Numbered from the stretch's first letter, positions 7,932 through 51,886 are shown. The stretch: DNA of 64,000 bases from Gemmatimonadota bacterium (GCA_040389905.1 JAZJZK010000027.1:1-64000), one strand, 5' to 3'. The notes: generated by a model not told the origin, from the letters alone. A program made the numbers and translations.

Positions 7932-9089
7932 GTGACAATGCGCGTCGCGCTCGTCTGTGACTGGTTCCTACCGAGGATGGGAGGCATCGAGCTGCACCTG
8001 CGCGACCTCGCGGTCGCGCTATGTGCGTCGGGCGTCGATGCGCGGATCGTCACGACGACGCCTGGCGCGGAGTGCGTTGACGGCGTTCGCGTGCACCGCG
8101 TACCAGGATCGCTGATGCCTGGCGCTGGGATCGCATATACCCCGGGCCCGATCGCCGCCATCGGGACGCTCATCCGGCGGGAGCGCTTCGACGTCGTGCA
8201 CGCCCACGCGAGCCTCTTTTCACCGGTAGCATTCGCTGGCGTGCGGGCAGGAATCGGCGCATCGCTTCCGACCGTCGTCACCTTTCACTCGATGCTGCGG
8301 CTGAGCTCCATCGGACTCGGCGCGTCCGACGCGCTACTGGGATGGACTCGGCATGTGGTGCTGAGTGCGGTCAGCAGTGTGGTGGCGGCGCAAGCTGCGC
8401 GCTGGATTCCGGGCGCCAGCGTCGCGGTGCTGCCGAACGCGATCGACGAATCGTTCTGGCGATCGCCGCCGCCGCCGGAGAGCGCAACGGTGCATTTCGT
8501 GAGCGCGATGCGATTGACCAGGAAGAAGCGCGCCCCGGCACTCGTCCGGGCGTTCGCGTCCGCGGTTCGGTTTTCCGCGGGTGTTCCGCACCTCACCCTG
8601 ACGATCGCCGGCGACGGGCCCGACCGGCAGTCGGTCGCGCGCCTGGCCGCGGACCTGGGTGTCGCAGAGCGCGTGTCGCTGCCGGGTTACCTCGATCGGC
8701 CTGCGTTGCGAGCGCTGTATGCGCGGGCGAACGCGTTCGTCTTGCCCAGCGAACGTGAGTCGTTCGGGATCGCGGCGCTCGAGGCACGTGCGGCGGGACT
8801 TCCTGTGCTCGCCATGCTGGACGGTGGTGCGCGCGACTTCATTGTTCCGGGGCAGAACGGACTACTCGCTCGCGATCATACGGAGTTAGCGCGGTTCATC
8901 GCCAGCCTCGCCATCGATACGCCGCTTCGCCGTTTCATCGCGGCGAGAAATCGCGGCACGCGGTCGGGGTTCGATTGGTCGGACATCGCGCCACTGCATC
9001 GCAGGCTCTATGATGCGACCGCGGAGTCGTTGGCGAGTGCGGGACGGCCCAGCCACGCGATGCCGGGAAGTGCCAGGGCGGTGAAGTAG
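7932..9089 (+). CDS. GT4 glycosyltransferase (PIG-A/PimA-like N-terminus)
   Basis: DWFLPRMGGIELH, ESFGIAALEARAAG. Confidence 0.9.
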   Translation: MTMRVALVCDWFLPRMGGIELHLRDLAVALCASGVDARIVTTTPGAECVDGVRVHRVPGSLMPGAGIAYTPGPIAAIGTLIRRERFDVVHAHASLFSPVAFAGVRAGIGASLPTVVTFHSMLRLSSIGLGASDALLGWTRHVVLSAVSSVVAAQAARWIPGASVAVLPNAIDESFWRSPPPPESATVHFVSAMRLTRKKRAPALVRAFASAVRFSAGVPHLTLTIAGDGPDRQSVARLAADLGVAERVSLPGYLDRPALRALYARANAFVLPSERESFGIAALEARAAGLPVLAMLDGGARDFIVPGQNGLLARDHTELARFIASLAIDTPLRRFIAARNRGTRSGFDWSDIAPLHRRLYDATAESLASAGRPSHAMPGSARAVK

Positions 9090-9964
9090 CACGCGTGCTG
9101 CACGACGGCCATGCCGACCGCTTTTTCCAGCGGAATGCCGACCCAAAGGTACACGAACACAATTGCCCCTTCATACGTGCCAATGTTGCCCGGCACGAGG
9201 GGCAGCAGCGTGGACAGGCTCGTGGCCGCGAGCACCAGAACCGCGGTGGCGGCTGAAGGAGTAACCCCCAGGGCACGCTGCACGCAGAGAATCGCGAGGA
9301 CTTCGACGACCTTCTTTGCAAGCGCGAGCGACAGGGACATCGACGCGCGCTTCAACGAGCGCAACGGCGCAAGCGTCGTCGAAAATGCCCGCAATGCCTG
9401 CACGCCGCGCGCGGGGATGACGGAGGCCAACCGCTCGGTGAGCCATTGCTGGCCGGAGGAAATCGCGATGCAGGCCGCAAGGAGCGAGGCAACACCGACT
9501 GCCAGGCCCAACGAGCCACGGTGTAACGGCGAGGGGATCGCAATCATCGCGGAGGCAGTTCCAATGACGGCAAGCTTTGCGACACCTACCAGCAGCTGGT
9601 CCATTGCGAGGACAGAAAGCGCGGCGGAACGCGAGACACCGATGCGCGTCACGAGGAGCAGCACTGCGCCGGCCTCGCCCAGAAACATGGCCGTCGTGTT
9701 CATCAGCGTGGAGGTCAGGGCGATCACCCCCAGCATGTTCCAGTACCGGTTGCCCGCGACTGGTGGTGCCAGCACACGCCACTGCGCCGCCCAGAGCGGA
9801 AGAATCATGACGTACGCGAGGAGCGCCGCAAACAGCCACGCGGGTTGCACCGCTCGCAGTTCGGCGCCGAGTCGCGCGAGGTCCATGCGGCGAATCGCGA
9901 ATGCAATGAGGGCGACGGCGACGATGAATCCCGTCATCAGTGCGACGTGACGATAGCGCCTCAT
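9008..9964 (-). CDS. Lysylphosphatidylglycerol synthase TM-region (UPF0104) flippase-like protein
   Basis: Multi-TM, QWRVL, PLVPGNIGTYEGA motif. Confidence 0.8.
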   Translation of the reverse strand: MRRYRHVALMTGFIVAVALIAFAIRRMDLARLGAELRAVQPAWLFAALLAYVMILPLWAAQWRVLAPPVAGNRYWNMLGVIALTSTLMNTTAMFLGEAGAVLLLVTRIGVSRSAALSVLAMDQLLVGVAKLAVIGTASAMIAIPSPLHRGSLGLAVGVASLLAACIAISSGQQWLTERLASVIPARGVQALRAFSTTLAPLRSLKRASMSLSLALAKKVVEVLAILCVQRALGVTPSAATAVLVLAATSLSTLLPLVPGNIGTYEGAIVFVYLWVGIPLEKAVGMAVVQHACYFTALALPGIAWLGRPALANDSAVAS

Positions 9965-10683
9965 TCGGCCACGCGTGGCGTGGACGCGATGTCACGCATC
10001 GTCATGAACGAAGCGTCTCGTTCCGCGAAGAGATCGATGACCTGCTCGAGACATTCGAGGGCGATACGCCCGGTGCGAAAGCGACAGTCATAGCGGAGCG
10101 ACGTCTTCGTGAGATCGACGAACTCCCAAGGATGCACAAACAGCACGACGGGATCGGCGAGCGCGAGCAGAATGGGCTTGCGTATCGGCCCGGGAAGGCG
10201 AAGCACGGATGACGTCATGGATGCGGCGACACGCGCGAGGCGACTTTCGGCCCGGGGTGCGCGATAGGACCACTTGTATTTGGCCAGCGACGCATCGAGG
10301 TCGAACGCCGACGCCTCCAGCAGGGAGACGAACGACTCGGGGAACTTGAGATAGGGCGCGCGGAACGACGTCACCGGAGCGAACTCGCGCAGGGTACGCG
10401 CGGACTGTTCGATTTCCCATCGCGCCGCCGCACGGTCGAGCGTGGTGAAGTCGGAGTGCGTGACGCCATGACACGCCAGTTCGTGATTCGCCGCGACGAC
10501 ATCGCGAACGGCGTTCGGATATCGATCCGCGACTTCCCCGGTTGTGAAATACGTGGCCGGGATGCCGCACCGAGAGAAGAGGTCGAGCAACGCGGGAGCC
10601 CCTTCTTCGATGCCGCGGAAGCTGGAGTTGAGGAAGGGCGGGCAGTCCGGCTCGAAGTCAACGGTGATCGCTACGCGCATCAC
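9961..10683 (-). CDS. Polysaccharide deacetylase (NodB/CE4-like)
   Basis: ITVDFE, ATYFTTG, HELACHG, SFRAPY, FVHPWE. Confidence 0.85.
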   Translation of the reverse strand: MMRVAITVDFEPDCPPFLNSSFRGIEEGAPALLDLFSRCGIPATYFTTGEVADRYPNAVRDVVAANHELACHGVTHSDFTTLDRAAARWEIEQSARTLREFAPVTSFRAPYLKFPESFVSLLEASAFDLDASLAKYKWSYRAPRAESRLARVAASMTSSVLRLPGPIRKPILLALADPVVLFVHPWEFVDLTKTSLRYDCRFRTGRIALECLEQVIDLFAERDASFMTMRDIASTPRVAE

Positions 10684-36420: not shown

Positions 36421-37257
36421 ATGCCCTCTTTGATGATCAATTCCGTGCGCTTGGCGAAATGGTATCTCTCCCTTCTTCCGGAAAGCCCCCCGGATTACTG
36501 GATGCACCGAGAGCCGATGGTCCGCGCGCGCATGGAATACGATGACGAGCGCTCGGCCGTCGGCTTCCATACGCTATTCACGATGGACCTTGCAAATAAG
36601 GACGTGCTCGACCTGGGATGCGGTTATGGCGGGCGCAGTGTCTACTTCAAGGAGCTCGGTGCGCGTCGCGTGGTAGCGATGGAAATCCGCGGGGAGATGA
36701 TCGATGAGGCGCTTGCGTTCGCCGCGGAGCGCGGCGTCACACTGGAGGGACTCGTTTCCGTTGGTGAGCAAATCGGACTTCCGCATGAAACAATTGACAT
36801 CATCACGTGCTACGACGTGTTCGAGCACGTTGAATCTGTCGCGGCGACGTTACAGGAGTGCTATCGTGTGCTCCGACCAGGCGGGATCGCGTACATCGTG
36901 TTTCCTCCATACCTCCATCCACTTGGCGGATCCCATCTTCACTCGTATCTATCGCGCTCACCTGCGCCCAACGCACTGTTCGGACGAGATACACTCTGGA
37001 CTGCGGTCCGCGAGCTGCTCATCGAGCGCGGAACCTTTGTCCCGGACAAGCGTCCCACTGATCCCCTTCCAGGGGTAAACGGAACAACCATCGCGCAATT
37101 CAGGAAGGCCTTGGCAGCGGTCCCATTCCGCGATGCGCAAGTCACGCTGCGACCTGTCAATGTTCCGCGACTAGGCGCCGTCGCAAGCGCGCTCTCGCGG
37201 ATCCCCGTCGTCCAGGAGGTCGCAGTCAGTCGGCTCCTTTGCGAACTGGCCAAATGA
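36421..37257 (+). CDS. Class I SAM-dependent methyltransferase (start uncertain)
   Basis: VLDLGCGYGG, DVFEHV, RVLRPGG. Confidence 0.87.
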   Translation: MPSLMINSVRLAKWYLSLLPESPPDYWMHREPMVRARMEYDDERSAVGFHTLFTMDLANKDVLDLGCGYGGRSVYFKELGARRVVAMEIRGEMIDEALAFAAERGVTLEGLVSVGEQIGLPHETIDIITCYDVFEHVESVAATLQECYRVLRPGGIAYIVFPPYLHPLGGSHLHSYLSRSPAPNALFGRDTLWTAVRELLIERGTFVPDKRPTDPLPGVNGTTIAQFRKALAAVPFRDAQVTLRPVNVPRLGAVASALSRIPVVQEVAVSRLLCELAK

Positions 37258-37284
37258 TTGTCTGGCCGTGCAATGAGCACCGCC

Positions 37285-38595
37285 TCAGATGTTCCGCGCC
37301 AGCCTGCTGGTCAGCGGATCCCAGCTGTGACTCCCGTCCTTCGTGATCAGTTCCACGACCGGGAGCGGAAAGATCATTCCTGTACCGGCATCGATCATCG
37401 GCTGCTCACGCTTCAGGAACTCGGTGCGGAAATGCCAGGGCAACACGAGATAGTAGTCCGGCTTCATCGCCCGTGACCGCTCCTCGGAGATGATGGGGAT
37501 ATTCGTGCCCAACGTGCGCGCCCCATCTTTGTCCGGATTGCGGTCGGCCGCGTAGGCGATGTGCGACTTATCCAACCCGCAGGCCTGAAGAATCGTGTTT
37601 CCCTTGGTCGACGCCCCATAGATGTGGATCGTCTTCCCCTGGTCGCGGAGGTGCGTGACCAGCGACGTCAGACTCCGCACGGCGTTCGAGACGCGTGCCT
37701 TGAACAACTCGTACGGCAGGTCTGTCTCAAGTTCGCGCTCGAATTCGCGGTGACGCAGGTCGGTCAGCTCTCGCCGAAACGTATCGTCGCCGACCGGATG
37801 GTCTTCCTCGTGCGTCACGAACACGCGGATGCTGCCGCCGTTGATGCTGTTCAACGCAGCGCGGCGAACCTTCATCCCTCCGGCGGCGACGATCCGCTCG
37901 ATCACGGCGAGACTGTAGTACTCGAGGTGCTCGTGGCAGATGGTGTCGTACGAATTGAGCTCCAGCGTGAGTGGCAAATATGCCACCTCGAAGATCCACA
38001 CACCGCCCGGCGCCAGCAATGCCTTGATGTTGCGCACAAAGTCAACCGGATCCTCGAGGTCGTAGAACATGGCGATCGACGTGACGATATCGAACGGCTG
38101 CTCTCCCGCCGCGCGCTGCAGGGTGCGTGACGGAAAGGTCTCCTGCACGACGTGCACGGTGGGCTCGCAGCCCAGCACCGCGTCGGACGGATCGCACCCG
38201 AACTGCACGACCTCTGCCGGGTAGTTGCGCAGCAGCGTCCCGTCGTTGCAGCCAATATCGAGCACGCGCAGCGGCGTGCGCCCCAACGTGGACATGGCAT
38301 CCGATACCACGCTGGCGAGGTGCCGGCGCATCGTTTCATTCGTGCCGGACCGGTACCAGTAGACCGAATAGAGGATTTCCGGTGGAACGCTGCACACCAT
38401 CTGCACCAGTCCGCACGCCTTTTCATCTCGGCTCGGATCGCAGCGCACCAGTGCTGTGGGAATGCGCCGCATTGGAGGCAACGGCTTTCCCTCCATCACA
38501 AAGGAGCCCTGGAGGTACTGCGGACCGAGGTCCAGCACCGGTGTCAACGCGGAGGATCCACAGGCGCGACACGTCGACCGAAAGGTCAGATGCAT
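37285..38595 (-). CDS. NDP-hexose C-methyltransferase family protein
   Basis: Zn motif CRAC...C...CGLVQ, LDIGCNDG, YDTICHEHLEYYS, YGASTKGNT. Confidence 0.87.
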   Translation of the reverse strand: MHLTFRSTCRACGSSALTPVLDLGPQYLQGSFVMEGKPLPPMRRIPTALVRCDPSRDEKACGLVQMVCSVPPEILYSVYWYRSGTNETMRRHLASVVSDAMSTLGRTPLRVLDIGCNDGTLLRNYPAEVVQFGCDPSDAVLGCEPTVHVVQETFPSRTLQRAAGEQPFDIVTSIAMFYDLEDPVDFVRNIKALLAPGGVWIFEVAYLPLTLELNSYDTICHEHLEYYSLAVIERIVAAGGMKVRRAALNSINGGSIRVFVTHEEDHPVGDDTFRRELTDLRHREFERELETDLPYELFKARVSNAVRSLTSLVTHLRDQGKTIHIYGASTKGNTILQACGLDKSHIAYAADRNPDKDGARTLGTNIPIISEERSRAMKPDYYLVLPWHFRTEFLKREQPMIDAGTGMIFPLPVVELITKDGSHSWDPLTSRLARNI

Positions 38596-38599
38596 GGTA

Positions 38600-39625
<1,026 letters not shown>

Positions 39626-39662
39626 AGTGCGAGAAACCGGGACTGGCGAGAGGGGCGAGATT

Positions 39663-40661
39663 CTAGTGATGGTGGAGGGCGTGCGTGTCGACGTACTCGA
39701 GCAGCTCATCCGACGAGACGGTGGCAGCGCCCAACTTTCCGACTTCGATGCCGGCGGCAACGTTCGAGATGTATGCTGCCTCAGCGGCGGACGCGCCGCT
39801 GGCCAGCATACACGCAAGGTAAGCCGTCACGGTGTCTCCAGCTCCCACGACATCGAACACTTCGCGCGCCACCGTCGGTGCACGGGTGATGGCACCGGCC
39901 TCGTCTACAAGAACCATCCCGTGCTCCCCCAGCGTCAAGAGCAGGTATTTCGCGCCGAGCCGCCGCACCGTGTGCGCGAGGGCGTCATGATGCTCCATGT
40001 CGACTTCCGCGCCCATCGCCGCCGCCAGTTCCCGGCGGTTCGGCTTGAAGATTGTCGCGCCCTGAAAGTGGAAAAAATGCCTGAACTTCGGATCGACGAC
40101 GATCGGGATGCCGCGCGCCATAGCGGCCTTGAGGCCCGCGTCGATGAGCGCTTCCGTCAGCACGCCCTTGTTGTAGTCCTCGAGCACGAGGGCGTCTGCA
40201 CCGTCAATTGCGGCGCGCGTATTGTCGATCAGCTGCCCAATTTCCGCACCGGTGAGCGGCGAGTCCTCTTCTTCGTCGATGCGGAGCAACTGCTGGGACC
40301 GCGCCACGATGCGCGTCTTCTGCGTCGTCACTCGGCCGACCGTGGCGACCTGATGGGTGAGGATTCCAGCCGCGCCCAGCATGCTCCGCAGGCGGCCCCC
40401 GCCCGAATCGGCGCCGAGCGCGGCCACGAGTGTACATTCGGCGCCGAGCGCGCGAACGTTTTGTGCCACGTTGGCGGCACCACCGAGCGCATAGTCTCGC
40501 TTCTTGACCCGGACGACAGGTACGGGCGCCTCTGGAGAGATACGCTCGACGTCGCCGGACACGTAGACGTCGAGCATCGCATCGCCAATCACAGCAATTC
40601 GTTGCCCGGCGGCTCTCTTGAGAAGTTCGACCAATCGGCCGCGGCTCGGGGCAGGTATCAT
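39663..40661 (-). CDS. rfaE1: D-glycero-D-manno-heptose-7-phosphate kinase (PfkB family, stand-alone)
   Basis: [34 protein letters not shown]; start uncertain. Confidence 0.9.
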
Positions 40662-40781
40662 CGTTGCGCTGAACCTAGAGATCTTGTCGAGGGCGGTCAA
40701 CGTGGATGAGGGCGTTGCCACCGCCATTCTTAGCGCTTTTCGGGCTAGGCGCGCCCGAGGCGCACGTTCACATTACACGCA

Positions 40782-41822
40782 ATGATCGCTGTCGTGACCG
40801 GTTCGTCAGGGTTCATCGGGTCGCACCTCGTCGAGGCGCTGCTCGCGCGCGGCGCGTCGGTGCGTGCGCTGCTGAGGCCGGATTCGGTCACGGGCCATCG
40901 TGATCCTCGTGTGAAATGCTGGCACGCGGACCTCCTCGACGACCGTTCAGTCCGCGAATCGGAGGTATGGCGTGGGGCAACGCACGTCTTCCACGTGGGT
41001 GGCGTGACGAAGGCCAGAACGCTCGCGCAGTTTCGGGACGGCAACACCATTCCCACGGCGAATATTCTCGCCGCGCTGTCGGCGCGTCCGTCGGGGAGCG
41101 TGCGTTTCATTCTCGTGTCATCGCAGGCGGCGGCAGGGCCCGCCGAGTCACCAGACCGGCCGGTGACCGAGGACGATGAGCGGAAGCCGATCGAAGCCTA
41201 CGGGCGGAGCAAGGGCGAAGCGGAAGACGTCACGACGCGATATTCACAATCCATCCCGGTCACGATCCTGCGGCCTGGTGCGGTCTATGGTCCGCGAGAT
41301 GTCGATTTCCTGAATGTGTTCAAGCAGGCAGTGAATCGCGTCGCATTTCATGCAGCGTCGCGCGAGCAGGCGATGTCCGTCGTGTACGTGCGCGACCTGG
41401 TGGAGGCGATACTCATCGCGGCAAATGCACGCGCGGCCGTCGGTCGAACCTATTTCGTGGCGGGCGAGGCGCCTGTGACGTGGGGTCAGATCTACGCACT
41501 GGTCGCGGGTTTTGCGGGCGTTCAGCCGATCGAACTGCAACTTCCTGCCGCAGCGTTGTGGCTCGCCGGTCAGGCCGGAAGCTTGCTTAGTCTCCTCACG
41601 GGCAAGGGTCTGCTCGTGAACGCGAACAAGATGGCACTGGCGCGCCCGAAGTGGTGGCTCTGCGATTCCTCGCGCATTCGCCGAGAACTCGGTTGGTCGG
41701 ACGCGGTCAGCCTACAGCAGGGCATTCTCGAGACGTATCTTTGGTACGTGAATGCTGGATGGCTTCGTCCGGCCGCGGGCGGCACGTCCAGGAACGCAGC
41801 GAACTCGGAGGAATCTGTCTGA
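40782..41822 (+). CDS. Extended SDR / NAD-dependent epimerase-dehydratase; candidate 3-keto reductase of the lipid locus
   Basis: TGSSGFIGS, YGRSK; 8 nt upstream of the fusion gene. Confidence 0.85.
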   Translation: MIAVVTGSSGFIGSHLVEALLARGASVRALLRPDSVTGHRDPRVKCWHADLLDDRSVRESEVWRGATHVFHVGGVTKARTLAQFRDGNTIPTANILAALSARPSGSVRFILVSSQAAAGPAESPDRPVTEDDERKPIEAYGRSKGEAEDVTTRYSQSIPVTILRPGAVYGPRDVDFLNVFKQAVNRVAFHAASREQAMSVVYVRDLVEAILIAANARAAVGRTYFVAGEAPVTWGQIYALVAGFAGVQPIELQLPAAALWLAGQAGSLLSLLTGKGLLVNANKMALARPKWWLCDSSRIRRELGWSDAVSLQQGILETYLWYVNAGWLRPAAGGTSRNAANSEESV

Positions 41823-41830: not shown

Positions 41831-44800
41831 ATGAAGAACGATGCGAAACGCGACCGCTGCCGGACACTCTTCGAGCTCGTCGAGTATCGAGCCGAAGCGA
41901 GCGCCGACAGGACGGCCTACCGCTTTGTGTCGTCGTCGGGTGAAGAAGACGGTACGCTGACCTACGGCGAGCTGCGCGAACGAGCAGCAATGATGGCGAG
42001 CCATCTGGCTGCTGTCACCGAGGCCGGCGATCGTGTCATCCTGCTATTGCCGCCGGGGCTGGATTACGTCGCGGCGTTGTTCGCCTGCCAATTTGCGGCC
42101 ACGGTCGCGGTGCCGGCCTATCCGCCCAATCCCCGGCGCCCGGATGGTCGCGTCGCCGGCATTATCGAAGACAGTGGCGCACGCGTCGCCATCGTCTCGT
42201 CCGCATTGCATGGCCGCCTTGGGCGCTCGATCGAGAACTCGCCGGTCCTTGGCCGCGTCGTCTGGCTCGACATCGAATCGATGAACGGGGACTCGGCGGA
42301 CGGCGGCATACGTCCTCCAGCGCGCGATGCGCTCGCGTTTCTGCAGTACACGTCTGGGTCGACGGGTGCACCGCGCGGCGTAATGCTGCCGCATGCGTCG
42401 GTCATGCACAACTTCGGCGTCATCCATCATGCGCTGCGCCACAGCGAAGACGATGAAGGCGTGTTCTGGGTGCCGCCGTACCACGACATGGGCCTCGTTG
42501 GCGGAATTCTCGAGCCGCTGTACGCCGGCTTTCCGACGAATCTGATGTCACCGTCGACGTTCTCGCAGCGGCCCGCGCGGTGGCTCGAGGCATTGTCGAA
42601 GTACCGCGCGACGACGAGCGGCGCGCCGAACTTTGCCTTCGACCTCGCAGCGGAACGCATTACGGAGGAAGAGAAGACCGCGCTCGATCTGTCGCATTGG
42701 CGCGTGGCCGCGAATGGAGCGGAACCGGTGCGCGCGGATACTATCGAGCGCTTCACGCGGGCGTTCGCGCCGTACGGCTTTCGGGCAGAGACCTTCATGC
42801 CGTGTTACGGTCTCGCGGAAATCACGTTGTTCGCGGCAGGAGAAACGCGGGTCACGCCGCCAGTCATCCTCTCCGCCGATCGCGCCCTCCTCGAGGCGCG
42901 ACGCCTCGCCGAAAGTGTTGCTCCCGACGCGTCGCGGCTCGTGACAGTCGGCCCCCCCGCGCGCGGCGTGACGATCTGCATCGTCGATCCCGATACGAAG
43001 CGCGAGTGCGCACGCGACGAAGTGGGGGAGATCTGGCTGGCGAGCGAAAGCATCGGGTCGGGCTATTGGGGACGGCCGGCCGAGACGAAGGATGCCTTCA
43101 ACGCCCGACTGGATGGCCGCGATGAACGATTCCTTCGTACGGGAGACCTCGGCGCGTTCTACGAGGGTGATCTCATCGTCACTGGACGCCTCAAGGATCT
43201 GGCAATCGTCGGTGGCCGCAATTTCTACCCGCAAGACATCGAGCGCGCCGCAGAAGAGAGTCACCCCAACGTACGTTCGGGTGGCGTCGCAGCATTCAGC
43301 GTCGGCGACCTCGGCAGTGAGAAGGTCGTCGTGGTGGCGGAAGTGGTGCGCCACCATCGTGAGCACCAACAGGGTGAGGTCGTCGGCGCGGTCCGGACGT
43401 CGGTCGCCGATGCACTTGGCGTCGTGGTCGACGACGTCGTCCTGATTCGACACGGGACGCTCCCGAAAACGTCGAGCGGAAAGTTGCAGCGCCGGCTCAC
43501 CAGGGCGCGCTTCCAGTCGGGTGAGCTGCGCGGCACGGAACCACCCGCACCGCCGCGGAATGGGACGCACGCGCCGGACGAGCATGCGTCCAGCGCAGAG
43601 CGGGCAGCAGGGATGCGCTCGTGGCTGCGCGATTATGCGCGAACGACGCTCGATTCGCGGCGTATGGATGAACGTCGTGAGATGGATCCGAGTCTTACCC
43701 GCGAGTTCGCCGCGCGCGGATTCTTCGGCTTGCAAACGCCGCAGAGCCTTGGTGGTACGGCGCTCGCGCACACCGATATGCTACGCGTCGTCGAGCAGTT
43801 GTCGGCAATCGATCTGACGCTCGCGACGTACATCGGCGGACACAATTCGCTCGGGATCCAGCCGATTCTCCGTCACGGGTCCACCGCGCTCCGCGATGCC
43901 GTCATCCCCCAGCTTGCGCGCGGTGCGCGGATCGCGGCGTTGGCGGTCACTGAACCGGCCGCCGGCTCGAATCCGTGGGCGATCGAGTCCGTCGCCATTC
44001 CAGTCGACGGGGGTTATCGGCTGCATGGCGTGAAGAGTTGGATTGGTTCGGCAGGTGTGGCCGATGTCTTCAACGTGCTGGCGCGCGTGCCGGGTGATAC
44101 TGGCGGTCTCACGGCCTTCGCGCTCAATGGAGGAGCGGCGGGACTGCGTATTGGTGATCCCGCGCTCACGATGGGCATGCGGGCCATGCTCCAGAATGCC
44201 GTCCATCTCGACGGTGTCTTTGCAGCCAGCGACGTGATTCTCGGCCATGTCGGCGGCGGCTTCGATGTGGCTCACGACACCTTCCTCCAGGCGCGCCTCG
44301 GCGTGGCCGCCATGTGCCTCGGTGCCATCAAGCGTTCGATCCAGCTCGCGCACCGATACGCGGCGCGACGGAAGGTGGCGTCCGGCAAGTTGCTGGCGCA
44401 CCCGGTGACGCGAGCGCGTCTGGGCCGAATGACTGCCTCCGCCGCCGCGCTCGATACCTACCTCGAGGTGATGGCGTTGCGCCTCGATGCCGGTGTGGCG
44501 CTACCGGAAGATGCATTCGTCATCTGCAAGACGGCCGCACCTGAGCTGTTATGGGATGCCGTCGATAGCGCGATGCAACTGCTCGGGGGGCGAGGATACG
44601 TCGAGACGAATCCGTTGGCGCCGATGCTGCGTGATGCTCGGCTCCTCCGCATCTTCGAAGGTCCCACCGAGCCGCTGTTGGTGCATCTCGGTGCCCGAAC
44701 GCTCAGGGAGGGGGCAGGGCAGCGCACGCTCCTCGGCGACGTTCTCGGCGCGCCGGACATTGCGGATCGCGTCGCCGAAGTGGCGCTGTTGACGACGGGC

Positions 44801-46705
44801 CGGCTCCTGCGCTCCGGGCGCGGCACCGCGCGCGCGACGGCGCAACAGTGGGCGAGTTACCGCCTTGGCCTCGTCGTTACCGAAGCGGCCATGTTGGCAT
44901 CGGCACGAATGGCCGCACAGCGCGCCATTCCCGGCGCTGAACACGCCATCACTGTCTTCGAGGAACGGCTCGAGGCAGCCGTCGCGCGCTGCGTCACGCC
45001 GCATGCGGACGAGCGGCCTGCACTCGACGCGCCTGGTCTCGACGATGCCATCGCGTGGGCGGGCGACGACATCGGTGACATTGAACAGCGCTCCAACACG
45101 GCGCTCGACCCCATGCTCGCCGTCGACTGGGACGACTCGCAGCGCCCAGCCGAAGCAGCGGAGGCGCCTGCCTCCGTCGCAGCGACTCGTACGCCGTCGC
45201 TGTCGTTCATCCTCGAGTGGCTCGTCGAGGAATTCCAGCTGCCACCCGGTACGGCGGAACCCGAAACGAGCCTCCGCGATCACGGCCTCGACTCACTGGC
45301 CGCAACGCGACTTGTCGTGGCGCTCGAAACCCACCTTGGTCGTCGGATCGACGCGTCGCTCCTGTGGCGCGCGGCAACGATCGGTGAATTTGCCGCTGCC
45401 GTCGACGGCGCGCGCGTGGAGGCGTTCACCTTTACGCCGCCCCCGGCGGCGCGCGATCATCGTGCGGATGGAATTCCGGTGGAACAGTGGCCCGAGTTCC
45501 GTGCCCTGCGCTCCCGAATGGCCGACGTCACGACACGAGGCACCGCCAACCCGTACTTCGCCGTCCATGAAGGCATCTCGGGAGCGACAGCCGTGGTGGC
45601 CGGGCGCGAGCTGCTGAATTTCGCCAACTACAATTACCTGGGCCTCTCCGGACATCCTGCCGTCACGCGCGCCGCGCGCGATGCAACTGACCAATACGGT
45701 ACGTCAGTGTCGGCGAGCCGTATTGCCTCGGGCGAACGACCGCTTCATGGCCAGCTCGAATCCGCCATCGCGAAATTCGTCGGCGCGGATGACGCGATCG
45801 TTTTCGTGGGTGGACACGCGACGAACGTGTCCGTGCTGTCGCACCTGTTCGGTCCAGGCGATCTCGTCCTCTGTGACGTGCTGATGCACAACAGCGCCCT
45901 GCAGGGAGCCGCGTTCTCGGGCGCGCGCTGGCTCACCTTTCCACACAACGACTGGCAGGCGTGCGATGCCATGCTCGCCGAGCTGCGTGCTCAGCATCGG
46001 CGAGCGGTCGTGGTCATCGAAGGTGTCTACAGCGCCGACGGCGATGTGCCGGATCTCGGCAAATTCGTAGACGTGAAGGTGCGTCACAACGCCATGCTCA
46101 TGGTCGATGAGGCGCATTCGCTCGGCGTGCTCGGAACCGGGGGCCGCGGAATCGCCGAGGGCGCGGGGGTCGAGCCGGCGGCAATCGACATCCTGATGGG
46201 AACGTTGAGCAAGACGTTGGCGAGCTGCGGCGGCTACGTCGCCGGCAGCAGCGCCCTGGTCGAGTATCTCAAGTACACCGCGCCCGGCTTTGTCTACAGC
46301 GTCGGCATCTCACCCCCGAATGCGGCGGCAGCGCTCGAAGCGCTGCGCGTTCTCGAGGCTGAACCCGAGCGCGTTACGCGCCTGCAGCAGCGAGCGGCGT
46401 ACTTTGCCACGGTGGCGAGAGAAGCGGGGCTGAATACGGGGCGCAGTGCAGGGAGTGCCGTCATTCCAATCGTCGTCGGCGACTCGCACCGCGCCGTGCG
46501 CGTCTCGCAACGCCTGTTCGATCGGGGTATCAACGTGCAGCCGATGATCAGCCCCGCGGTGCCGAACGATGAAGCGCGCCTCCGATTCTTCATCTCCAGC
46601 GAGCACACCACTGAGCAAATCGACGAGGCCATTCGCTTGACGGCAGAAGCGCTGGTGTCGAGCACAGAGAGCGATTCGTCGTTGCAACTGACGGAACAAG
46701 CGTAG
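41831..46705 (+). CDS. Four-domain fusion: fatty acyl-AMP ligase - acyl-CoA dehydrogenase - ACP - PLP alpha-oxoamine synthase (Spt/BioF family)
   Basis: LQYTSGSTG, PPYHDMGLVGG, PCYGLAE, LPKTSSGK; TEPAAGS, RIFEG; GLDSL; NYLGLS, DEAHS, GTLSKT; one uninterrupted 1624-aa ORF. Confidence 0.92.
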   Translation: MKNDAKRDRCRTLFELVEYRAEASADRTAYRFVSSSGEEDGTLTYGELRERAAMMASHLAAVTEAGDRVILLLPPGLDYVAALFACQFAATVAVPAYPPNPRRPDGRVAGIIEDSGARVAIVSSALHGRLGRSIENSPVLGRVVWLDIESMNGDSADGGIRPPARDALAFLQYTSGSTGAPRGVMLPHASVMHNFGVIHHALRHSEDDEGVFWVPPYHDMGLVGGILEPLYAGFPTNLMSPSTFSQRPARWLEALSKYRATTSGAPNFAFDLAAERITEEEKTALDLSHWRVAANGAEPVRADTIERFTRAFAPYGFRAETFMPCYGLAEITLFAAGETRVTPPVILSADRALLEARRLAESVAPDASRLVTVGPPARGVTICIVDPDTKRECARDEVGEIWLASESIGSGYWGRPAETKDAFNARLDGRDERFLRTGDLGAFYEGDLIVTGRLKDLAIVGGRNFYPQDIERAAEESHPNVRSGGVAAFSVGDLGSEKVVVVAEVVRHHREHQQGEVVGAVRTSVADALGVVVDDVVLIRHGTLPKTSSGKLQRRLTRARFQSGELRGTEPPAPPRNGTHAPDEHASSAERAAGMRSWLRDYARTTLDSRRMDERREMDPSLTREFAARGFFGLQTPQSLGGTALAHTDMLRVVEQLSAIDLTLATYIGGHNSLGIQPILRHGSTALRDAVIPQLARGARIAALAVTEPAAGSNPWAIESVAIPVDGGYRLHGVKSWIGSAGVADVFNVLARVPGDTGGLTAFALNGGAAGLRIGDPALTMGMRAMLQNAVHLDGVFAASDVILGHVGGGFDVAHDTFLQARLGVAAMCLGAIKRSIQLAHRYAARRKVASGKLLAHPVTRARLGRMTASAAALDTYLEVMALRLDAGVALPEDAFVICKTAAPELLWDAVDSAMQLLGGRGYVETNPLAPMLRDARLLRIFEGPTEPLLVHLGARTLREGAGQRTLLGDVLGAPDIADRVAEVALLTTGRLLRSGRGTARATAQQWASYRLGLVVTEAAMLASARMAAQRAIPGAEHAITVFEERLEAAVARCVTPHADERPALDAPGLDDAIAWAGDDIGDIEQRSNTALDPMLAVDWDDSQRPAEAAEAPASVAATRTPSLSFILEWLVEEFQLPPGTAEPETSLRDHGLDSLAATRLVVALETHLGRRIDASLLWRAATIGEFAAAVDGARVEAFTFTPPPAARDHRADGIPVEQWPEFRALRSRMADVTTRGTANPYFAVHEGISGATAVVAGRELLNFANYNYLGLSGHPAVTRAARDATDQYGTSVSASRIASGERPLHGQLESAIAKFVGADDAIVFVGGHATNVSVLSHLFGPGDLVLCDVLMHNSALQGAAFSGARWLTFPHNDWQACDAMLAELRAQHRRAVVVIEGVYSADGDVPDLGKFVDVKVRHNAMLMVDEAHSLGVLGTGGRGIAEGAGVEPAAIDILMGTLSKTLASCGGYVAGSSALVEYLKYTAPGFVYSVGISPPNAAAALEALRVLEAEPERVTRLQQRAAYFATVAREAGLNTGRSAGSAVIPIVVGDSHRAVRVSQRLFDRGINVQPMISPAVPNDEARLRFFISSEHTTEQIDEAIRLTAEALVSSTESDSSLQLTEQA

Positions 46706-46707: not shown

Positions 46708-46814
46708 GTCCGCTCGTTTTGTCGCCCTGAGTGAAACGAAGGGCCCCCACATCATGCCGTTGCAAGAGCAGGTGCAGGCGCGTCGCTTCGCTCAGGGCGA
46801 CAAAACGAGCGGAC
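46708..46814. repeat. Inverted REP pair between convergent genes, possible bidirectional terminator
   Basis: Perfect 24-bp inverted repeat 46708-46731 / 46791-46814, same family as 2981-3069. Confidence 0.85.
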
Positions 46815-46824: not shown

Positions 46825-47736
46825 CTACAGCAATCTCCGCTCGACGACGCGCGCCACTCCAGTCGCCGCGATGCCCACGAACAACCCTGCCACGACATCC
46901 ACGGCGTAGTGGTATCCGCCGTATACGGCTCCAAACCCAAGCCCGATTGTCACGAAAACCATGACGATGCCGAGCGCTCGCTGAAATCGGAGCGCGCTCA
47001 TGGTCGCGACGACCGACGCCGCCACGTGCGATGAGGGAAAGGCCGTCCCGCGCGATGAGCCCGACTCCAACAGCGCGATGACGATCGAGCGAACGGGGCC
47101 ATCGGGCGCGTCGGACGGACCGAGCAGGAAGCGTGGGCCATCCACGGGCAGCAAGGCATACGTGGCAAAGCACAGGCAGTACACGACGACCAGTGCGAAG
47201 GTTGACCGCACAAACGCGTTCCGACTGCCAGTCAACGTCAACAATGCCGGCGGAGCATAGATGAGGGCATAGTAGGCGAGGTAGCAGAGGTGCAGCACCT
47301 CGCTCAATGCACTCGAGTGCAGCTGGGCGGCCAGCGTACGCGAAGGGTCGGAGGCGAAAGCGCTCGCCTCCCAGCCGCGAACCAACGCGTCCAGGTGCGG
47401 CCGGCCGACGCCTTCGATGATCCACCGCAGCTCGATGTAGAGAAAAGGCCCGACCGCGAGGGGCGTCCAGTCGCGCACGGTGCGCACGATTCGGCTGGGA
47501 AAAGTGCCGCACACCAACGCACATACCACGGCGGAGAGCATCGCGGTGTGCATAGCCAGCGGCGCCCACGTTGCCGTCCTTGCGGCCAGCCCTACGAGGG
47601 GCACGACCATCACAACGAGGTAGACCGACAGGACCCCGAGCGAGAGCGCCGTGTAGCGGTCGCTCACATCGCGGTCCGGCATCCTCAACCGATCGAGTAG
47701 TCGACGCATGGCCCGCAGTATTACCTTTGCGCTCAT
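46825..47736 (-). CDS. PAP2-superfamily membrane enzyme (Aur1/IPC-synthase-like); start uncertain
   Basis: LPVDGPRF, AFPSSHV, GYHYAVD; multiple TMs. Confidence 0.85.
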   Translation of the reverse strand: MSAKVILRAMRRLLDRLRMPDRDVSDRYTALSLGVLSVYLVVMVVPLVGLAARTATWAPLAMHTAMLSAVVCALVCGTFPSRIVRTVRDWTPLAVGPFLYIELRWIIEGVGRPHLDALVRGWEASAFASDPSRTLAAQLHSSALSEVLHLCYLAYYALIYAPPALLTLTGSRNAFVRSTFALVVVYCLCFATYALLPVDGPRFLLGPSDAPDGPVRSIVIALLESGSSRGTAFPSSHVAASVVATMSALRFQRALGIVMVFVTIGLGFGAVYGGYHYAVDVVAGLFVGIAATGVARVVERRLL

Positions 47737-47765: not shown

Positions 47766-48905
47766 GTGAGTCTCGAGATCATTTCCGCCGAGTCGAAGCG
47801 CGACATCAACCGCTTCGTCGATCTGCCATGGCAGATCTATACCAAGAAGGACCATGCACAGTGGATCCCACCGCTTCGGTTGACGGTGCTGGACGCACTC
47901 GATCGGAAGAAACCGTTCTACCGAGACGCGGAACGCGCGCTTTTCATCGCGGTGCGCGACGGAAAGGACGTCGGTCGAATCGCCGCGATCGAGAATCGGA
48001 CGCACAACCGCGTGCATGGAGACAAGGTGGGTTTCTGGGGCTTCTTCGAGAGCGTCGACGATCAGGAGGTGGTGAATGCCCTGTTCGACGCTGCCGCGCG
48101 CTGGCTTGCCGGCCGCGGCCTCGATACGATGCGCGGGCCCGTCATGCCGAGCACGAACTACGATTGCGGTCTGCTGGTCGATGGGTTCGAGCATGAGCCG
48201 ACGTTCATGACGCCGTGGAACCCTCGCTCGTATCCCGCCATGATCGAGCGGGCCGGCCAGGCCAAGGTCAAGGACCTCGTGGCCTACGTCATACCGATGG
48301 CTGATGGGTTCGAACTGCCGCCGACGTTCAAGGCACTGGCGGAACGGGCGCAGTCGAAAGCCGAAATCACCTTTCGCGACCTGGATCTCTCGAATTGGGG
48401 TGAGGAACTCGAGCGATGCTGGGATGTTTACAACTCCGCATGGGAGGAGAATTGGGGCTTCGTGCCCATGACGAAGGATGAATTCGTCGTCATGGCGAAG
48501 GACCTCAAGCCGCTCATGATCACGCAGTTCGTCTTCATGGCCGAGGTCAAGGGCGTTCCGGTCGGCTTCATGTTCATCGTGCCGGATTTCAACAAGATCC
48601 TGAAGAACATTCCCAACGGCAAACTCTTTCCAACGGGCGCGTTCAAGTTGCTCCTCGGGAAGTCGAAGCTGCGCGACGGGCGCATCATGGCGTTCGGCAT
48701 CAAGAAGGAATTCCGGTCCCGCTCCATCTTTCCCGTCTTTGCCTACGAAGCATTCCGACGCGGGCGCGCCTACGGAGCAACCAGCGCTGAGGCGAGCTGG
48801 ATTCTCGAGGACAACGAATTGCTCCTCGCGCCGCTGCGGGGGATCGGGCTCAAGGAACACCGCCGGTGGCGTTTGTACGACGGAACGACATCGCGCTCCG
48901 GCTGA
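47766..48905 (+). CDS. GNAT-fold acyltransferase resembling bacterial ceramide synthase (bCerS/YghO-like)
   Basis: RFVDLPWQIY, VGRIAAIEN, GFWGFFES, MRGP, AWEENWGFVP, EASWILEDN; GTG start inferred. Confidence 0.8.
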   Translation: MSLEIISAESKRDINRFVDLPWQIYTKKDHAQWIPPLRLTVLDALDRKKPFYRDAERALFIAVRDGKDVGRIAAIENRTHNRVHGDKVGFWGFFESVDDQEVVNALFDAAARWLAGRGLDTMRGPVMPSTNYDCGLLVDGFEHEPTFMTPWNPRSYPAMIERAGQAKVKDLVAYVIPMADGFELPPTFKALAERAQSKAEITFRDLDLSNWGEELERCWDVYNSAWEENWGFVPMTKDEFVVMAKDLKPLMITQFVFMAEVKGVPVGFMFIVPDFNKILKNIPNGKLFPTGAFKLLLGKSKLRDGRIMAFGIKKEFRSRSIFPVFAYEAFRRGRAYGATSAEASWILEDNELLLAPLRGIGLKEHRRWRLYDGTTSRSG

Positions 48906-49012: not shown

Positions 49013-49825
49013 TTGCCGACCCTTTCTACACGCCTCGCGTCCGCCACCAAGGCAAAACTCCGCACCGTTCAGGACTACTTCTCCCTGGCCGGCCGCGCGT
49101 TGGGCTTCATTTTCGCCCGGCCCTTTTACGCGCAGGATCTCATCCAGCAGATGGATGAGATCGGTGTAAAGTCGCTGGGGATCGTGCTGCTCACCGGTTT
49201 CTTCACCGGAATGGTGCTCGCACTGCAATCGAGCGTGCAGCTCCAGACCTTCGGCGCGACGATGTACATCGGACGACTCGTTTCCGCATCGATGATCCGC
49301 GAGCTCGGCCCCGTGCTCGCCGGTCTCATGGTCGCTGGACGCGTAGGGTCCGGAATCGCCGCGCAACTCGGATCCATGCGCGTGACCGAGCAGATCGACG
49401 CCTTGAACACACTCGGCACCGATCCCATCAAGAAGCTGGTGACGCCGCGCGTACTGGCTGCGCTACTCATGCTGCCGGTGCTCACCGTCATCAATGACTT
49501 CGTCGGCATCCTCGGCGGCAATCTCATTTCGACGGTGCTGGTCGGCATTCCGAGCGGGCTGTACTGGCGCACGGTGTGGGAGCAGATCGCGTCCGATGGA
49601 TTCACGATGCGCTTCATTCCGAACGACTTCGTCCAGGGCATCACGAAACCGTTCGTCTTCGGCGGCATCATTTCGATTTCGGCGTGCTACTTCGGGCTCA
49701 ACACGACCGGCGGTACGGAAGGCGTGGGTCAGGCAACGACGCGGACCGTGGTGCTCTCGAGCATCCTGATCCTCATCGTGGACTACTTCCTCACGCAGAT
49801 CCTTCTTTCGCTGTTTGCACCATGA
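49013..49825 (+). CDS. mlaE: MCE/Mla ABC transporter permease
   Basis: RELGPVLAGLMVAGRVGS, MRVTEQIDAL, GVGQATT. Confidence 0.93.
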   Translation: MPTLSTRLASATKAKLRTVQDYFSLAGRALGFIFARPFYAQDLIQQMDEIGVKSLGIVLLTGFFTGMVLALQSSVQLQTFGATMYIGRLVSASMIRELGPVLAGLMVAGRVGSGIAAQLGSMRVTEQIDALNTLGTDPIKKLVTPRVLAALLMLPVLTVINDFVGILGGNLISTVLVGIPSGLYWRTVWEQIASDGFTMRFIPNDFVQGITKPFVFGGIISISACYFGLNTTGGTEGVGQATTRTVVLSSILILIVDYFLTQILLSLFAP

Positions 49826-50742
49826 TCGACGATCCGCGTGACAAGGGCGACGACGGAACGTTGCCGCGCGAGTCCAAGCGTCGCGGTGAAGGCCGGCGTC
49901 TTGCCGAGCGGAAGCCGGAGAACGTGCGCGCGGCCATTCGGGACGAGCTCGCGGTCGATGAGCCTGCCGATGCGGCGATCGCCGCAAAAAAGGCCGAGCG
50001 GGGCGAAGCCGAGGCGATCATCGAGCTCAGCCACGTCTTCCTTGCGTTCGATTCGCCTATTCTCGAAGACGTCTCGTTCGTTGCGCGCAAAGGGGAGACG
50101 ATCTGTGTGGTCGGAGAGTCGGGTACCGGTAAGAGCACAGCGCTCAAGCTCATCCTTCGCCTACTGGTTCCAGACAAGGGATCGGTCTGTATCGATGGCC
50201 AGGACATCACCGGACTCACCTTCAAGGAAGCACTCGAGGTTCGGCAGCGCATGGGCATGGTCTTCCAGGGGGCCGCGCTGTTCGACTCGATGTCCGTGTT
50301 CGAGAACATCGCATACCCGTTGCGAGAGCACACGGATCTGTCCGAGGAGGAGATCGAACAGCGCGTGCGGGAGAAGCTGGATTTCGTCGATCTCGAGCCG
50401 GACCGTGTCATGAGCCAATTGCCGTCGGAGCTGTCTGGGGGCATGCGGAAGCGCGTCGGCATCGCGCGCGGCATGGCCAACAATCCCGAGATCATGCTGT
50501 ACGACGAGCCGACCTCGGGGCTCGATCCGCTCACCACGGGCACGATTACGCGGCTGATCATGAAGCTGCAGCGAGAGCTGAACGTTACCAGCGTGGTCGT
50601 TTCGCACGACATTCGCTCCGTGTTCCGCATGGCGACACGCGTTGCCGTTCTGCACGACCGAAAGATCGCCTTCTTCGGCACGCCGGAAGAGATGTCCGCC
50701 TCCGACGACACTTACCTCCGCGATTTCCTCGGCGGCAACTGA
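49822..50742 (+). CDS. mlaF: MCE/Mla ABC transporter ATPase
   Basis: GESGTGKS, FQGAALFDSM, LSGGMRKRV, YDEPTSGLDP. Confidence 0.93.
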   Translation: MIDDPRDKGDDGTLPRESKRRGEGRRLAERKPENVRAAIRDELAVDEPADAAIAAKKAERGEAEAIIELSHVFLAFDSPILEDVSFVARKGETICVVGESGTGKSTALKLILRLLVPDKGSVCIDGQDITGLTFKEALEVRQRMGMVFQGAALFDSMSVFENIAYPLREHTDLSEEEIEQRVREKLDFVDLEPDRVMSQLPSELSGGMRKRVGIARGMANNPEIMLYDEPTSGLDPLTTGTITRLIMKLQRELNVTSVVVSHDIRSVFRMATRVAVLHDRKIAFFGTPEEMSASDDTYLRDFLGGN

Positions 50743-50743
50743 C

Positions 50744-51721
50744 ATGAAACGCTCTTCGACACTCACGTGGGACCAGCTGCGCGTCGGCCTCGTCATTCTC
50801 CTCGCCGTAGGAGTCATCGGCGTCGCCGTCTACAAGCTGGGAGAATCCGCCAATCTCTTCGCCAAGCGCTACGAACTCATTGCCTATCTGCCGGATGCAA
50901 ACGGGTTGAAGGTAGGGGGCTCGGTGATGATCGCTGGCCAACTCGCCGGCATCGTGGAGAAGATCGATTTCCTTCCCGTGGATGCGGATACGACGCGCAA
51001 CCTGAAGCTCACGCTCAAGGTCGACGTCAACCTCCGCGAGCAGATCCGCCGCGACTCGCGCGGGAAGTTGCGAACACTCGGACTGTTAGGGGACAAGGTG
51101 TTCGACATTTCGCCGGGAACGCCGCGGACGCAGCCGCTCGCGGAGGGCGACACCGTCTCCATCACCGCCGTCCTCGACTATGACGCGGTCATCGCACAGG
51201 CGAGCGGTGCCGTCACGGACATGGTTTCGCTCACGCGTGACCTCCGCGCCATCACCGGCGGCATCGTCCGAGGTGAGGGCTCGCTCGGGAAACTCGTCAC
51301 GGATCGCACCCTCTACGATCAGCTCAACAACACGTTGGCGCGCGCCAATACGATGCTGGCGAGTCTTCAGAATCCCAACGGGACGATGGGACGCATGCTC
51401 AACGATCCCTCGCTCTACAACAAGCTCATTGGCGTCATCAGCTCCACCGACTCGCTGATCATGTCGATCAATTCGAGTAAGGGCACGGCGGGCATGCTGC
51501 TGCGTGATTCGACGCTCTACAAGAACATGGTGGGGATCACCGTCGGGGCGGACTCCTTGCTCAAATCCTTATCGAACGGAAAGGGAACCGTTGGCCGATT
51601 CCTCACGGATCAGACGCTCTACGACCAGGTCAACAAACTCGTGACGGACCTGAGCGCCATTCTTGCTGACATCCGAAAGGATCCCAGCAAATACACGAAG
51701 GGCATCATCAAGGTTTTCTAG
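50744..51721 (+). CDS. mlaD: MCE-domain (MlaD family) protein with helical repeats
   Basis: N-terminal TM, ANGLKVGGSV, TLGLLGDKV, repeated GxGxxGxLxxDxxLY. Confidence 0.88.
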   Translation: MKRSSTLTWDQLRVGLVILLAVGVIGVAVYKLGESANLFAKRYELIAYLPDANGLKVGGSVMIAGQLAGIVEKIDFLPVDADTTRNLKLTLKVDVNLREQIRRDSRGKLRTLGLLGDKVFDISPGTPRTQPLAEGDTVSITAVLDYDAVIAQASGAVTDMVSLTRDLRAITGGIVRGEGSLGKLVTDRTLYDQLNNTLARANTMLASLQNPNGTMGRMLNDPSLYNKLIGVISSTDSLIMSINSSKGTAGMLLRDSTLYKNMVGITVGADSLLKSLSNGKGTVGRFLTDQTLYDQVNKLVTDLSAILADIRKDPSKYTKGIIKVF

Positions 51722-51748
51722 CACCGTCAGACATACCATGCACAGCAC

Positions 51749-51777
51749 TTGCCCCGCCACTCGCGTCGGACTAAAAT
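51749..51777 (+). promoter_or_regulatory. Putative sigma70-type promoter for tRNA-Val
   Basis: TTGCCC (51749-54) - 17 nt - TAAAAT (51772-77), followed by hairpin 51783-51807. Confidence 0.5.
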
Positions 51778-51812
51778 CCGGATTCCGGTACCTGACAGGT
51801 ATCGGAACATCC

Positions 51813-51886
51813 GGTCGCGTAGCTCAGCTGGTTAGAGCGCTGCTTTCACACAGCAGAGGTCCACGGTTCGAGTCCGTGCGTGACCA
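51813..51886 (+). tRNA. tRNA-Val(CAC); CCA not encoded
   Basis: GGTCGCG/CGTGACC acceptor, CTGCT-TTCACAC-AGCAG anticodon arm, GGTTCGAGTCC. Confidence 0.95.

Follow-up and report, generated by a model that had tools for sequence, protein, structure and literature searches.

The eukaryotic route to 4E-unsaturated long-chain bases combines serine palmitoyltransferase (SPT) with DEGS1, a delta-4 desaturase that acts after N-acylation and uses O2. RedL of undecylprodigiosin synthesis holds a FAAL (fatty acyl-AMP ligase), an acyl carrier protein (ACP) and an alpha-oxoamine synthase (AOS) in one chain, together with ketosynthase (KS) and acyltransferase (AT) domains, and puts glycine onto a beta-ketoacyl chain. 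In Proteobacteria, passages of PMC9386255 describe a proven route in which a FAAL-type ligase (AasR), a dedicated ACP (AcpR) and an AOS (Spt) are separate proteins, and in Caulobacter, E. coli BL21 and Sphingomonas this system feeds a YghO-type N-acyltransferase (CerS) and an epimerase-type reductase (CerR) (PMC9386255, PMC11324152). We looked at how these systems compare with a 64,000-nucleotide stretch of DNA from a Gemmatimonadota bacterium (GCA_040389905.1, JAZJZK010000027.1:1-64000; below, the window), in which one open reading frame (ORF) encodes a FAAL, an acyl-CoA dehydrogenase (ACAD), an ACP and a pyridoxal phosphate (PLP)-dependent AOS as a single fusion protein (Table 1).

Compared with AasR/AcpR/Spt, the three steps are here carried by one chain, an ACAD is inserted and the AOS is of another clade. 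The fusion shares its AOS clade, its PLP-site motifs and the hand-over from an ACP with PfSgaAB of Pseudomonas fluorescens MYb115 (PMC12134224, as described there) and with RkpAG/WcbRT-type clusters. In PfSgaAB, however, the chain comes from an iterative polyketide synthase (PKS) and not from a FAAL and an ACAD, SgaB is a separate protein, and the PfSgaAB-type loci examined carry a reductase of the short-chain dehydrogenase/reductase type and no CerS. An iterative type I PKS partner was not found here, as neither the fusion nor the neighbouring genes contain KS or AT domains. The order of the first three domains is that of the FAAL-ACAD-ACP starters, such as the nostovalerolactone protein NvlI (PMC9324945), Orf45 from the enduracidin pathway and the split LipA/LipB/ACP set (PMC9113097); NvlI, Orf45 and LipB were likened to it by their descriptions. 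These starters feed PKS or nonribosomal peptide synthetase lines, whereas the module here ends in an AOS. Three-domain FAAL-ACP-AOS proteins of Gemmatimonadota lie in the same gene cluster with an AOS of a sister clade, but lack the ACAD. The parts are all known, and what is new is the joining of a FAAL-ACAD-ACP starter to an SgaB-type SPT within a ceramide cluster of the AasR/AcpR/Spt kind. A sequence-only reading of this DNA had known of no characterised enzyme with this architecture. Likewise, we found no published description of such a protein, or of Gemmatimonadota sphingolipid genes, in the full-text literature, to which subscription papers are largely external. Term look-up gave no mention of a sphingolipid or an oxoamine synthase in a 2025 FAAL review (PMC11837247), and none of fusions in PMC9386255 or PMC11334938.

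A genuine four-domain open reading frame

Pfam placed AMP-binding at residues 18-413, the FAAL-type C-terminal domain at 459-567, the N, M and C parts of the ACAD at 595-955, PP-binding at 1128-1191 and Aminotran_1_2 at 1260-1602. No KS or AT domain was detected in the protein by the same scan, which sets it apart from RedL. The catalytic Glu943 (IFEG), the phosphopantetheine Ser1155 (GLDS) and the PLP Lys1461 (GTLSKT) are all present, so that the architecture, the key residues and the lack of KS and AT given by the sequence-only reading stand. A CTG at 41819, preceded by GGAGG at 7 nt and overlapping the stop of the upstream gene, is a possible alternative start. All four domains were found in the 16 top full-length homologues, with an identity of 65-69%. 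Among 55 genomes of the genus, the four-domain form was present in 16 (this one included), a three-domain FAAL-ACP-AOS form in 25 and neither in 14; in the four-domain set the fusion is split over contig ends in G011 and G750 and cut by a contig end in G736 and G756, and one member of that set, G012, is an unpublished genome. The sequence-only reading had missed the three-domain form, which is the commoner of the two. It had also considered a mis-assembly, and this is ruled out by the full-length homologues and by the recurrence of the fusion in the genus. One Logan contig of run X1 covers the whole ORF with zero differences, but it does not count as independent support because X1 may be the source of the DNA analysed. 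Altogether, these results confirm that the fusion ORF is genuine and that its catalytic residues are intact.

The first domain has a FAAL-type profile and C-terminal domain, with an ACP downstream in the same chain. With NCBIfam, FAAL models scored best at 429 bits, and the FadD-type CoA ligase model PRK06187 reached 167; every one of these matches is under its lineage-specific cut-off. The ACP is 74-85% identical across the 17 closest four-domain orthologues. Promoter and terminator scans gave no excess over chance. An inverted repeat similar to repetitive extragenic palindromic (REP) elements (46709-46813) separates the fusion from the PAP2 gene, which is convergent with it. It has 328 BLAST pieces genome-wide, which accounts for a read-depth spike there, and the segment 46701-46825 folds into a long hairpin of -77 kcal/mol. 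The repeat may terminate both the fusion and the PAP2 transcripts.

The oxoamine synthase domain and its likely amino acid

The AOS was placed in two quick maximum-likelihood trees, with SH-aLRT support only, no bootstrap and long branches present; for the first tree, 21 redundant Nitrospira/Aminicenantes rows were dropped and 3 short matches left out. In both, it fell inside a PKS/ACP-linked clade with Pseudomonas SgaB-like and Sinorhizobium RkpG-like enzymes (SH-aLRT 99-100), and this clade was sister to the canonical Spt group, whereas E. coli BioF and Kbl were placed elsewhere. The sequence-only reading had proposed such a phylogeny as a check. As far as these quick trees go, the domain is not a BioF or a Kbl; it is of the SgaB type and lies outside the canonical Spt clade, a point that the sequence-only reading had missed. 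When aligned to S. multivorum Spt, with residue roles taken from PMC10196870, the domain was found to carry the PLP Lys, the stacking His, the Asp and His contacts to PLP and the Ser of the GSR/ASR loop. It shares the motifs YNYLG, SVSASR, GHATN, HNS and GTLSK with the SgaB/RkpG type. Its identity to E. coli BL21 Spt is 34%, and it is 56% identical to a plasmid-borne, PKS-adjacent SgaB-like AOS from Pseudomonas, with all PLP-site motifs in common. This homologue stood in for PfSgaB in the trees. PfSgaB itself was compared by eye from the sgaB DNA in supplement file 9 of PMC12134224, and 61 of 91 residues match between the NFA motif and the stacking His. Purified PfSgaB is described as an SPT that takes serine almost exclusively when alanine and glycine are compared with it (PMC12134224). 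L-serine is therefore the likely substrate of the AOS, since the domain groups with SgaB-like enzymes and matches one that is serine-specific.

Several points weigh against this assignment. RedL-type AOS domains use glycine. None of the curated Spt profiles was passed (315, 300 and 226 bits for cut-offs of 640, 500 and 670, respectively), and the top score was that of BioF (343 bits), itself below its cut-off of 426, as was Kbl (293 bits for 460). In addition, where S. multivorum Spt has residues such as Asn52 and Met271 (PMC10196870), this domain has Tyr and Val, and the choice of amino acid cannot be read from the AOS motifs. As an alternative, the product could be a 1-deoxy base from alanine or glycine, a sulfonolipid of the capnine type or a small amino-ketone that acts as a signal, instead of a serine-derived base. 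The position of the AOS outside the canonical Spt clade and under all Spt cut-offs would fit, as would the abundance of 1-deoxyceramides in some bacterial communities reported in part of PMC11334938, and a metagenome locus (L149) in which a FAAL-ACAD-ACP protein has as neighbours a probable sensor protein and a stand-alone AOS that is only distantly related. We consider such products highly unlikely, however, as PfSgaB, to which the AOS is close, rejects alanine and glycine according to the same description (PMC12134224). Moreover, a search of solved structures with the AOS gave 236 bits for Spt, well above cysteate acyltransferase (151) and CqsA (104), and the conserved PAP2 neighbour would imply a C1 hydroxyl. 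In the L149 locus itself (L149:7069-14963), an AOS about 32% identical to this one, passing no curated family, lies directly 5' of the FAAL-ACAD-ACP gene and is preceded by a long sensor-like membrane protein; it is possibly a locus for a signal molecule with an unsaturated acyl chain. Two streptomycete loci (L115:11353-16191 and L011:6495-13531) contain KS-AT-ACP-AOS genes adjoining MMPL transporters, with an AOS about 53% identical to the one studied here.

The dehydrogenase domain and the possible position of the double bond

ACAD chemistry does not need O2 as a substrate. The closest solved relatives of the ACAD are VLCAD and ACAD9, both by sequence and by the fold of an AF2 model (pLDDT 89, TM 0.69), and the domain shares the C-terminal helical extension of these long-chain enzymes. 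It has FAD-binding motifs and a catalytic Glu at the MCAD position, conserved in 30/30 aligned ACAD sequences. The mean nonsynonymous rate (dN) over six orthologues (G012 left out; synonymous sites near saturation) is 0.225 for the ACAD core, between that of the AOS (0.199) and that of the FAAL (0.313), indicating that the ACAD is maintained and not decaying. Judged by these rates, it is under strong purifying selection, and the claim that it is intact and conserved is borne out. Its identity is 45-50% to FAAL-ACAD-ACP modules, among them fused ones carried by plasmids of Gloeocapsa, Gloeothece and Burkholderia, and only about 30% to the catabolic ACADs of the same genome, and trees concur. 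Among 8000 candidates, 368 long proteins gave a match at E 1e-60 or better. By domain order and ACAD subfamily, the fused ACAD belongs to this widespread family of loading modules. Parts of PMC9113097 describe ACAD genes between FAAL and ACP genes that introduce double bonds into the acyl chains of lipopeptides.

The fusion probably yields an unsaturated sphingoid base. One alternative is that it performs an Spt step giving saturated sphinganine, with the ACAD acting elsewhere, for instance on the N-acyl chain or in editing; in a variant of the same idea, the double bond is removed or later turned into a hydroxyl or an epoxide. The same cluster runs without the ACAD in the 25 three-domain genomes, so the ACAD is dispensable for making the lipid, and no extra partner gene was found in four-domain loci. 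Yet the loading modules that desaturate a tethered chain have their ACAD at the same place, between FAAL and ACP, and by dN the ACAD of the fusion is as conserved as the AOS. A saturated product, in either variant, is unlikely.

The sequence-only reading had also predicted a delta-4 base, and we agree with its arithmetic, as an acyl C2=C3 bond becomes C4=C5 of the base after condensation with serine. Its premise that ACADs make trans-2-enoyl thioesters has exceptions. Among the ACP-linked ACADs covered in passages of PMC9113097, the bond is delta-2 in laspartomycin and delta-2,4 in taromycin and malacidin, but cis-delta-3 for LipB of friulimicin. Delta-4 is therefore only tentatively assigned, and a number of observations count against it. 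Friulimicin LipB and the laspartomycin enzyme, which gives delta-2, share 60% identity (PMC9113097), so that the sequence does not fix the position of the bond. The model for the FAAL-ACAD of NvlI (PMC9324945) mentions beta,gamma double-bond formation, which may refer to PKS steps. Conjugation would make an enoyl thioester less electrophilic, and the product, an enone, could be re-reduced. Finally, PF00487 and PF08557 searches gave no evident compensating desaturase in three-domain genomes, and hence no desaturase swap supports delta-4. PF00487 matches were present in 4/5 four-domain and 4/5 three-domain genomes, and these are mutually unrelated or DesA-like and unlinked to the cluster. PF08557 gave 0/55 in the genus and is uninformative because the controls were equally without a match (0/14). 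The gene 3' of the three-domain fusions was considered as a desaturase and rejected, being an Sfp phosphopantetheinyl transferase (PPTase). The best 150 library matches included 30 long proteins that were scanned, and none of these has a desaturase between FAAL and ACP.

These same enzymes open an alternative branch within the explanation that we favour, in which dehydrogenation by the ACAD would leave a beta,gamma bond (3,4, probably cis), or a 2,3 bond that then shifts, leading to a delta-5 base that would tweak fluidity and not be sphingosine. LipB, the NvlI sentence and the greater closeness of the ACAD to starter modules than to catabolic enzymes all fit such a branch. Against this, the Glu lies where MCAD and VLCAD have the residue that abstracts the alpha proton, the lipopeptide cases are mostly delta-2 or delta-2,4 (PMC9113097, as far as described there), and the sentence on NvlI is ambiguous (PMC9324945). 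We regard a delta-5 base as unlikely.

As for oxygen, the genome encodes alpha and beta subunits of the electron-transfer flavoprotein (ETF), and also two full matches to haem-copper oxidase subunit I (COX1) and membrane desaturases. These oxidases and desaturases do not suggest lack of oxygen as the driver in this host. The oxygen-independent delta-4 route put forward by the sequence-only reading is a tentative hypothesis.

Gene neighbourhood, distribution and proposed pathway

The genes around the fusion are listed in Table 1.

Table 1. Coordinates of the fusion, its domains and the associated genes in the window
Feature	Position	Strand	Basis or remark
FAAL-ACAD-ACP-AOS fusion, 1624 aa (P0001)	41831..46705	+	ATG 41831, stop 46705, single uninterrupted frame
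FAAL domain	41831..43540	+	NCBIfam FAAL models best; 34% to E. coli BL21 AasR
ACAD core and VLCAD-like C-terminal helical extension	43613..45130	+	Pfam; solved relatives VLCAD/ACAD9
ACAD core, Glu943 at 44657	43613-44695	+	Pfam
ACP, phosphopantetheine Ser1155 at 45293	45212..45403	+	Pfam PP-binding
PLP alpha-oxoamine synthase, SgaB/RkpG-type clade, Lys1461 at 46211	45476..46660	+	Trees, motif table
NAD-dependent epimerase/reductase, CerR-like, candidate 3-keto reductase	40782..41822	+	Pfam Epimerase
PAP2_3 membrane protein, candidate head-group transferase (like inositol phosphorylceramide synthase)	46825..47736	-	Pfam PAP2_3
bCerS/YghO-family N-acyltransferase, candidate ceramide synthase	47766..48905	+	E. 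coli BL21 YghO match
GT4 glycosyltransferase (+), LPG-synthase-TM protein and polysaccharide deacetylase (-)	7932..10683		Pfam; candidate head-group glycosylation

The stop of the epimerase gene is 9 nt 5' of the fusion ATG, and an epimerase gene is upstream of the fusion in every locus of family f1 that reaches that far. Its product matches the epimerase encoded with spt in E. coli BL21 at 26% identity (E 1e-21). The second gene downstream of the fusion encodes a protein which, although Pfam and NCBIfam scans gave no match, is 33.5% identical to BL21 YghO over 376 aa (E 1e-64), and 33-35% identical to proteins adjoining spt in 8 Sphingomonas-type loci. For the BL21 epimerase and YghO, roles in ceramide synthesis as reductase and N-acyltransferase, respectively, have been proposed (PMC9386255, PMC11324152). 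The PAP2_3 protein matches phosphoinositol dihydroceramide synthase weakly (29 bits, cut-off 480), and its neighbour position is conserved. An inositol-1-phosphate synthase is encoded in the genome, which would fit an inositol head group. The order epimerase-fusion-(PPTase)-PAP2-CerS was found in 7/7 four-domain loci that are long enough and in 11/13 three-domain loci, the remaining two being cut by contig ends. The Sfp PPTase gene is 3' of the fusion in 13/13 three-domain loci versus 1/7 four-domain loci, and in this genome the candidate Sfp-type PPTase is on another contig (C2). The GT4-deacetylase trio is directly upstream of the epimerase in relatives and 30 kb away here. The MlaE/F/D-type ABC transporter genes (49013-51721) that directly follow the CerS-like gene were excluded from the cluster, since they do not adjoin it in the relatives compared.

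Two sister families, represented by four genomes, have a stand-alone Spt together with the same CerS and epimerase genes (4/4) and with PAP2 (3/4); the best model for this AOS is SerpalmtaseCFB, a Bacteroidota-type Spt (526-536 bits, cut-off 640). The fusion thus occupies the slot of Spt. Over the 55 genomes of the genus, the fusion AOS and the CerS orthologue are present together in 38, both absent in 12 and disagree in 5, which is support and not a test because the genomes are kin and the metagenome-assembled genomes (MAGs) incomplete. Only one further AOS was found in this genome, and it falls with Kbl, but the assembly is 85% complete, so that another Spt could be missing from view, a point that tells against our interpretation. 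The role of sphingoid-base synthase proposed by the sequence-only reading is nonetheless strongly supported by the genomic context, with CerS, CerR and PAP2 relatives as neighbours.

A further alternative is that the product is a lipid anchor or carrier of capsule or exopolysaccharide, in the manner of RkpAG/WcbRT, and not a bulk membrane ceramide. The nearest stand-alone AOS relatives are located in capsule clusters, and polysaccharide, Wzi and export genes are found around the fusion here and in relatives. Conversely, the constant neighbours are CerS and CerR relatives, which are absent from those capsule loci, and an anchor role would be compatible with the same chemistry. We hold this role to be quite unlikely. 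The polysaccharide cluster that separates the fusion from the GT4-deacetylase trio (29366-40727) comprises an oxidoreductase, a flippase, a GT4, three methyltransferases, a GDP-mannose dehydratase and a PfkB kinase, and a Wza-like export gene is downstream (51663-54425). On another contig of the same genome (G000:C37, 13353-24662), a second FAAL, a thioester-reductase-like gene, an acyltransferase and a methyltransferase, with a membrane desaturase nearby, form another lipid cluster.

The names of homologues, together with a named locus at 64-72% identity, point to Gemmatimonadota. In 401 genomes drawn from the family, with three ACAD candidates scored per genome, an ACAD of the fusion type was found in 5, all within this genus, and the fusion-type AOS in 31. 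Three other genomes of the genus (G738, G739, G749) have an ACAD 38-39% identical in long frames and no fusion AOS was found in them; these are probably separate FAAL-ACAD-ACP starter modules. Outside the phylum, the four-domain architecture was found at 40-44% identity in three cyanobacteria that are in culture, namely Scytonema sp. HK-05, Nostoc sp. NIES-4103 and Amazonocrinis CENA67; no intact four-domain locus from cyanobacteria was recovered in 301 genomes of the class of G432, nor in a metagenome scan (best 80 of 591). A profile-free scan of the 50% library gave five further four-domain proteins among the 30 long matches, one of them from a Bacteroidota MAG. In a check of 211 proteins, 79 were FAAL-ACAD-ACP without AOS, 89 FAAL-ACP-AOS and 28 had all four domains. 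Two 2,620-aa proteins (P0031, P0064) carry FAAL-ACP-AOS and then a second FAAL-ACP with a class-III aminotransferase. In the tree, five four-domain fusions (P0180, P0212, P0256, P0264, P0318) use a second AOS lineage, 38-42% identical to this AOS, which points either to repeated assembly of the design or to swapping of its domains. Myxobacteria are sphingolipid producers. An ACAD-ACP-AOS protein of 1042 aa without a FAAL (P0199/P0383), one cluster member of which is named from a Polyangiaceae MAG, is a lead to the source of unsaturated bases in that group.

From these data, we propose that the fusion probably catalyses the committed first step towards ceramide in these bacteria and that desaturation is built in ahead of condensation. 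A separate Sfp-type PPTase, for which the C2 gene is the candidate, would prime the ACP. The FAAL, as is expected from its family, would adenylate a long-chain fatty acid and load it onto the ACP, and the FAD-dependent ACAD would dehydrogenate the tethered chain beside the thioester. The most likely outcome of this step would be 2E-enoyl-ACP, with the electrons going to ETF or to a different acceptor. The SgaB-type AOS would then condense the enoyl chain with L-serine, with loss of CO2, to 3-keto-sphingenine, an acyl 2,3 bond leading to delta-4 and an acyl 3,4 bond to delta-5. By homology and gene order, the neighbouring bCerS would N-acylate the base, the CerR-like enzyme would reduce the ketone, and PAP2 and/or the GT4-deacetylase trio would attach the head group. 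In its most specific form, which we put forward tentatively, a single polypeptide could make 3-keto-(4E)-sphingenine through a flavin dehydrogenase before condensation, and so lead to a true sphingosine-type ceramide without an O2-using delta-4 desaturase. As part of this tentative scheme, the design may have been assembled more than once, given the two AOS lineages and its presence in Gemmatimonadota, cyanobacteria and a Bacteroidota MAG, with ACAD-ACP-AOS in Polyangiaceae. With a delta-4 bond, the end product would be the same as that of eukaryotic SPT and DEGS1, but the flavin enzyme would act before condensation.

If this is true, the double bond of the long-chain base is set before condensation, whereas in the textbook route an O2-dependent desaturase sets it afterwards. 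If the bond is placed as predicted, bacteria would have a route to the sphingosine backbone distinct from the oxygen-using one of animals. The sister genomes without the ACAD provide a natural control, and a one-gene route to sphingosine precursors would serve ceramide production. According to PMC11334938, roughly one in two ceramide structures from the euxinic Black Sea has a base with one double-bond equivalent, and a 3-keto group can mimic such an equivalent (PMC11765627). The fusion could help to explain this finding and, if the proposal is true, could be one source of unsaturated-base ceramides in anoxic waters. It would also widen sphingolipid production to a lineage overlooked by Spt-based surveys, which miss it because the AOS fails Spt cut-offs and is automatically named BioF.

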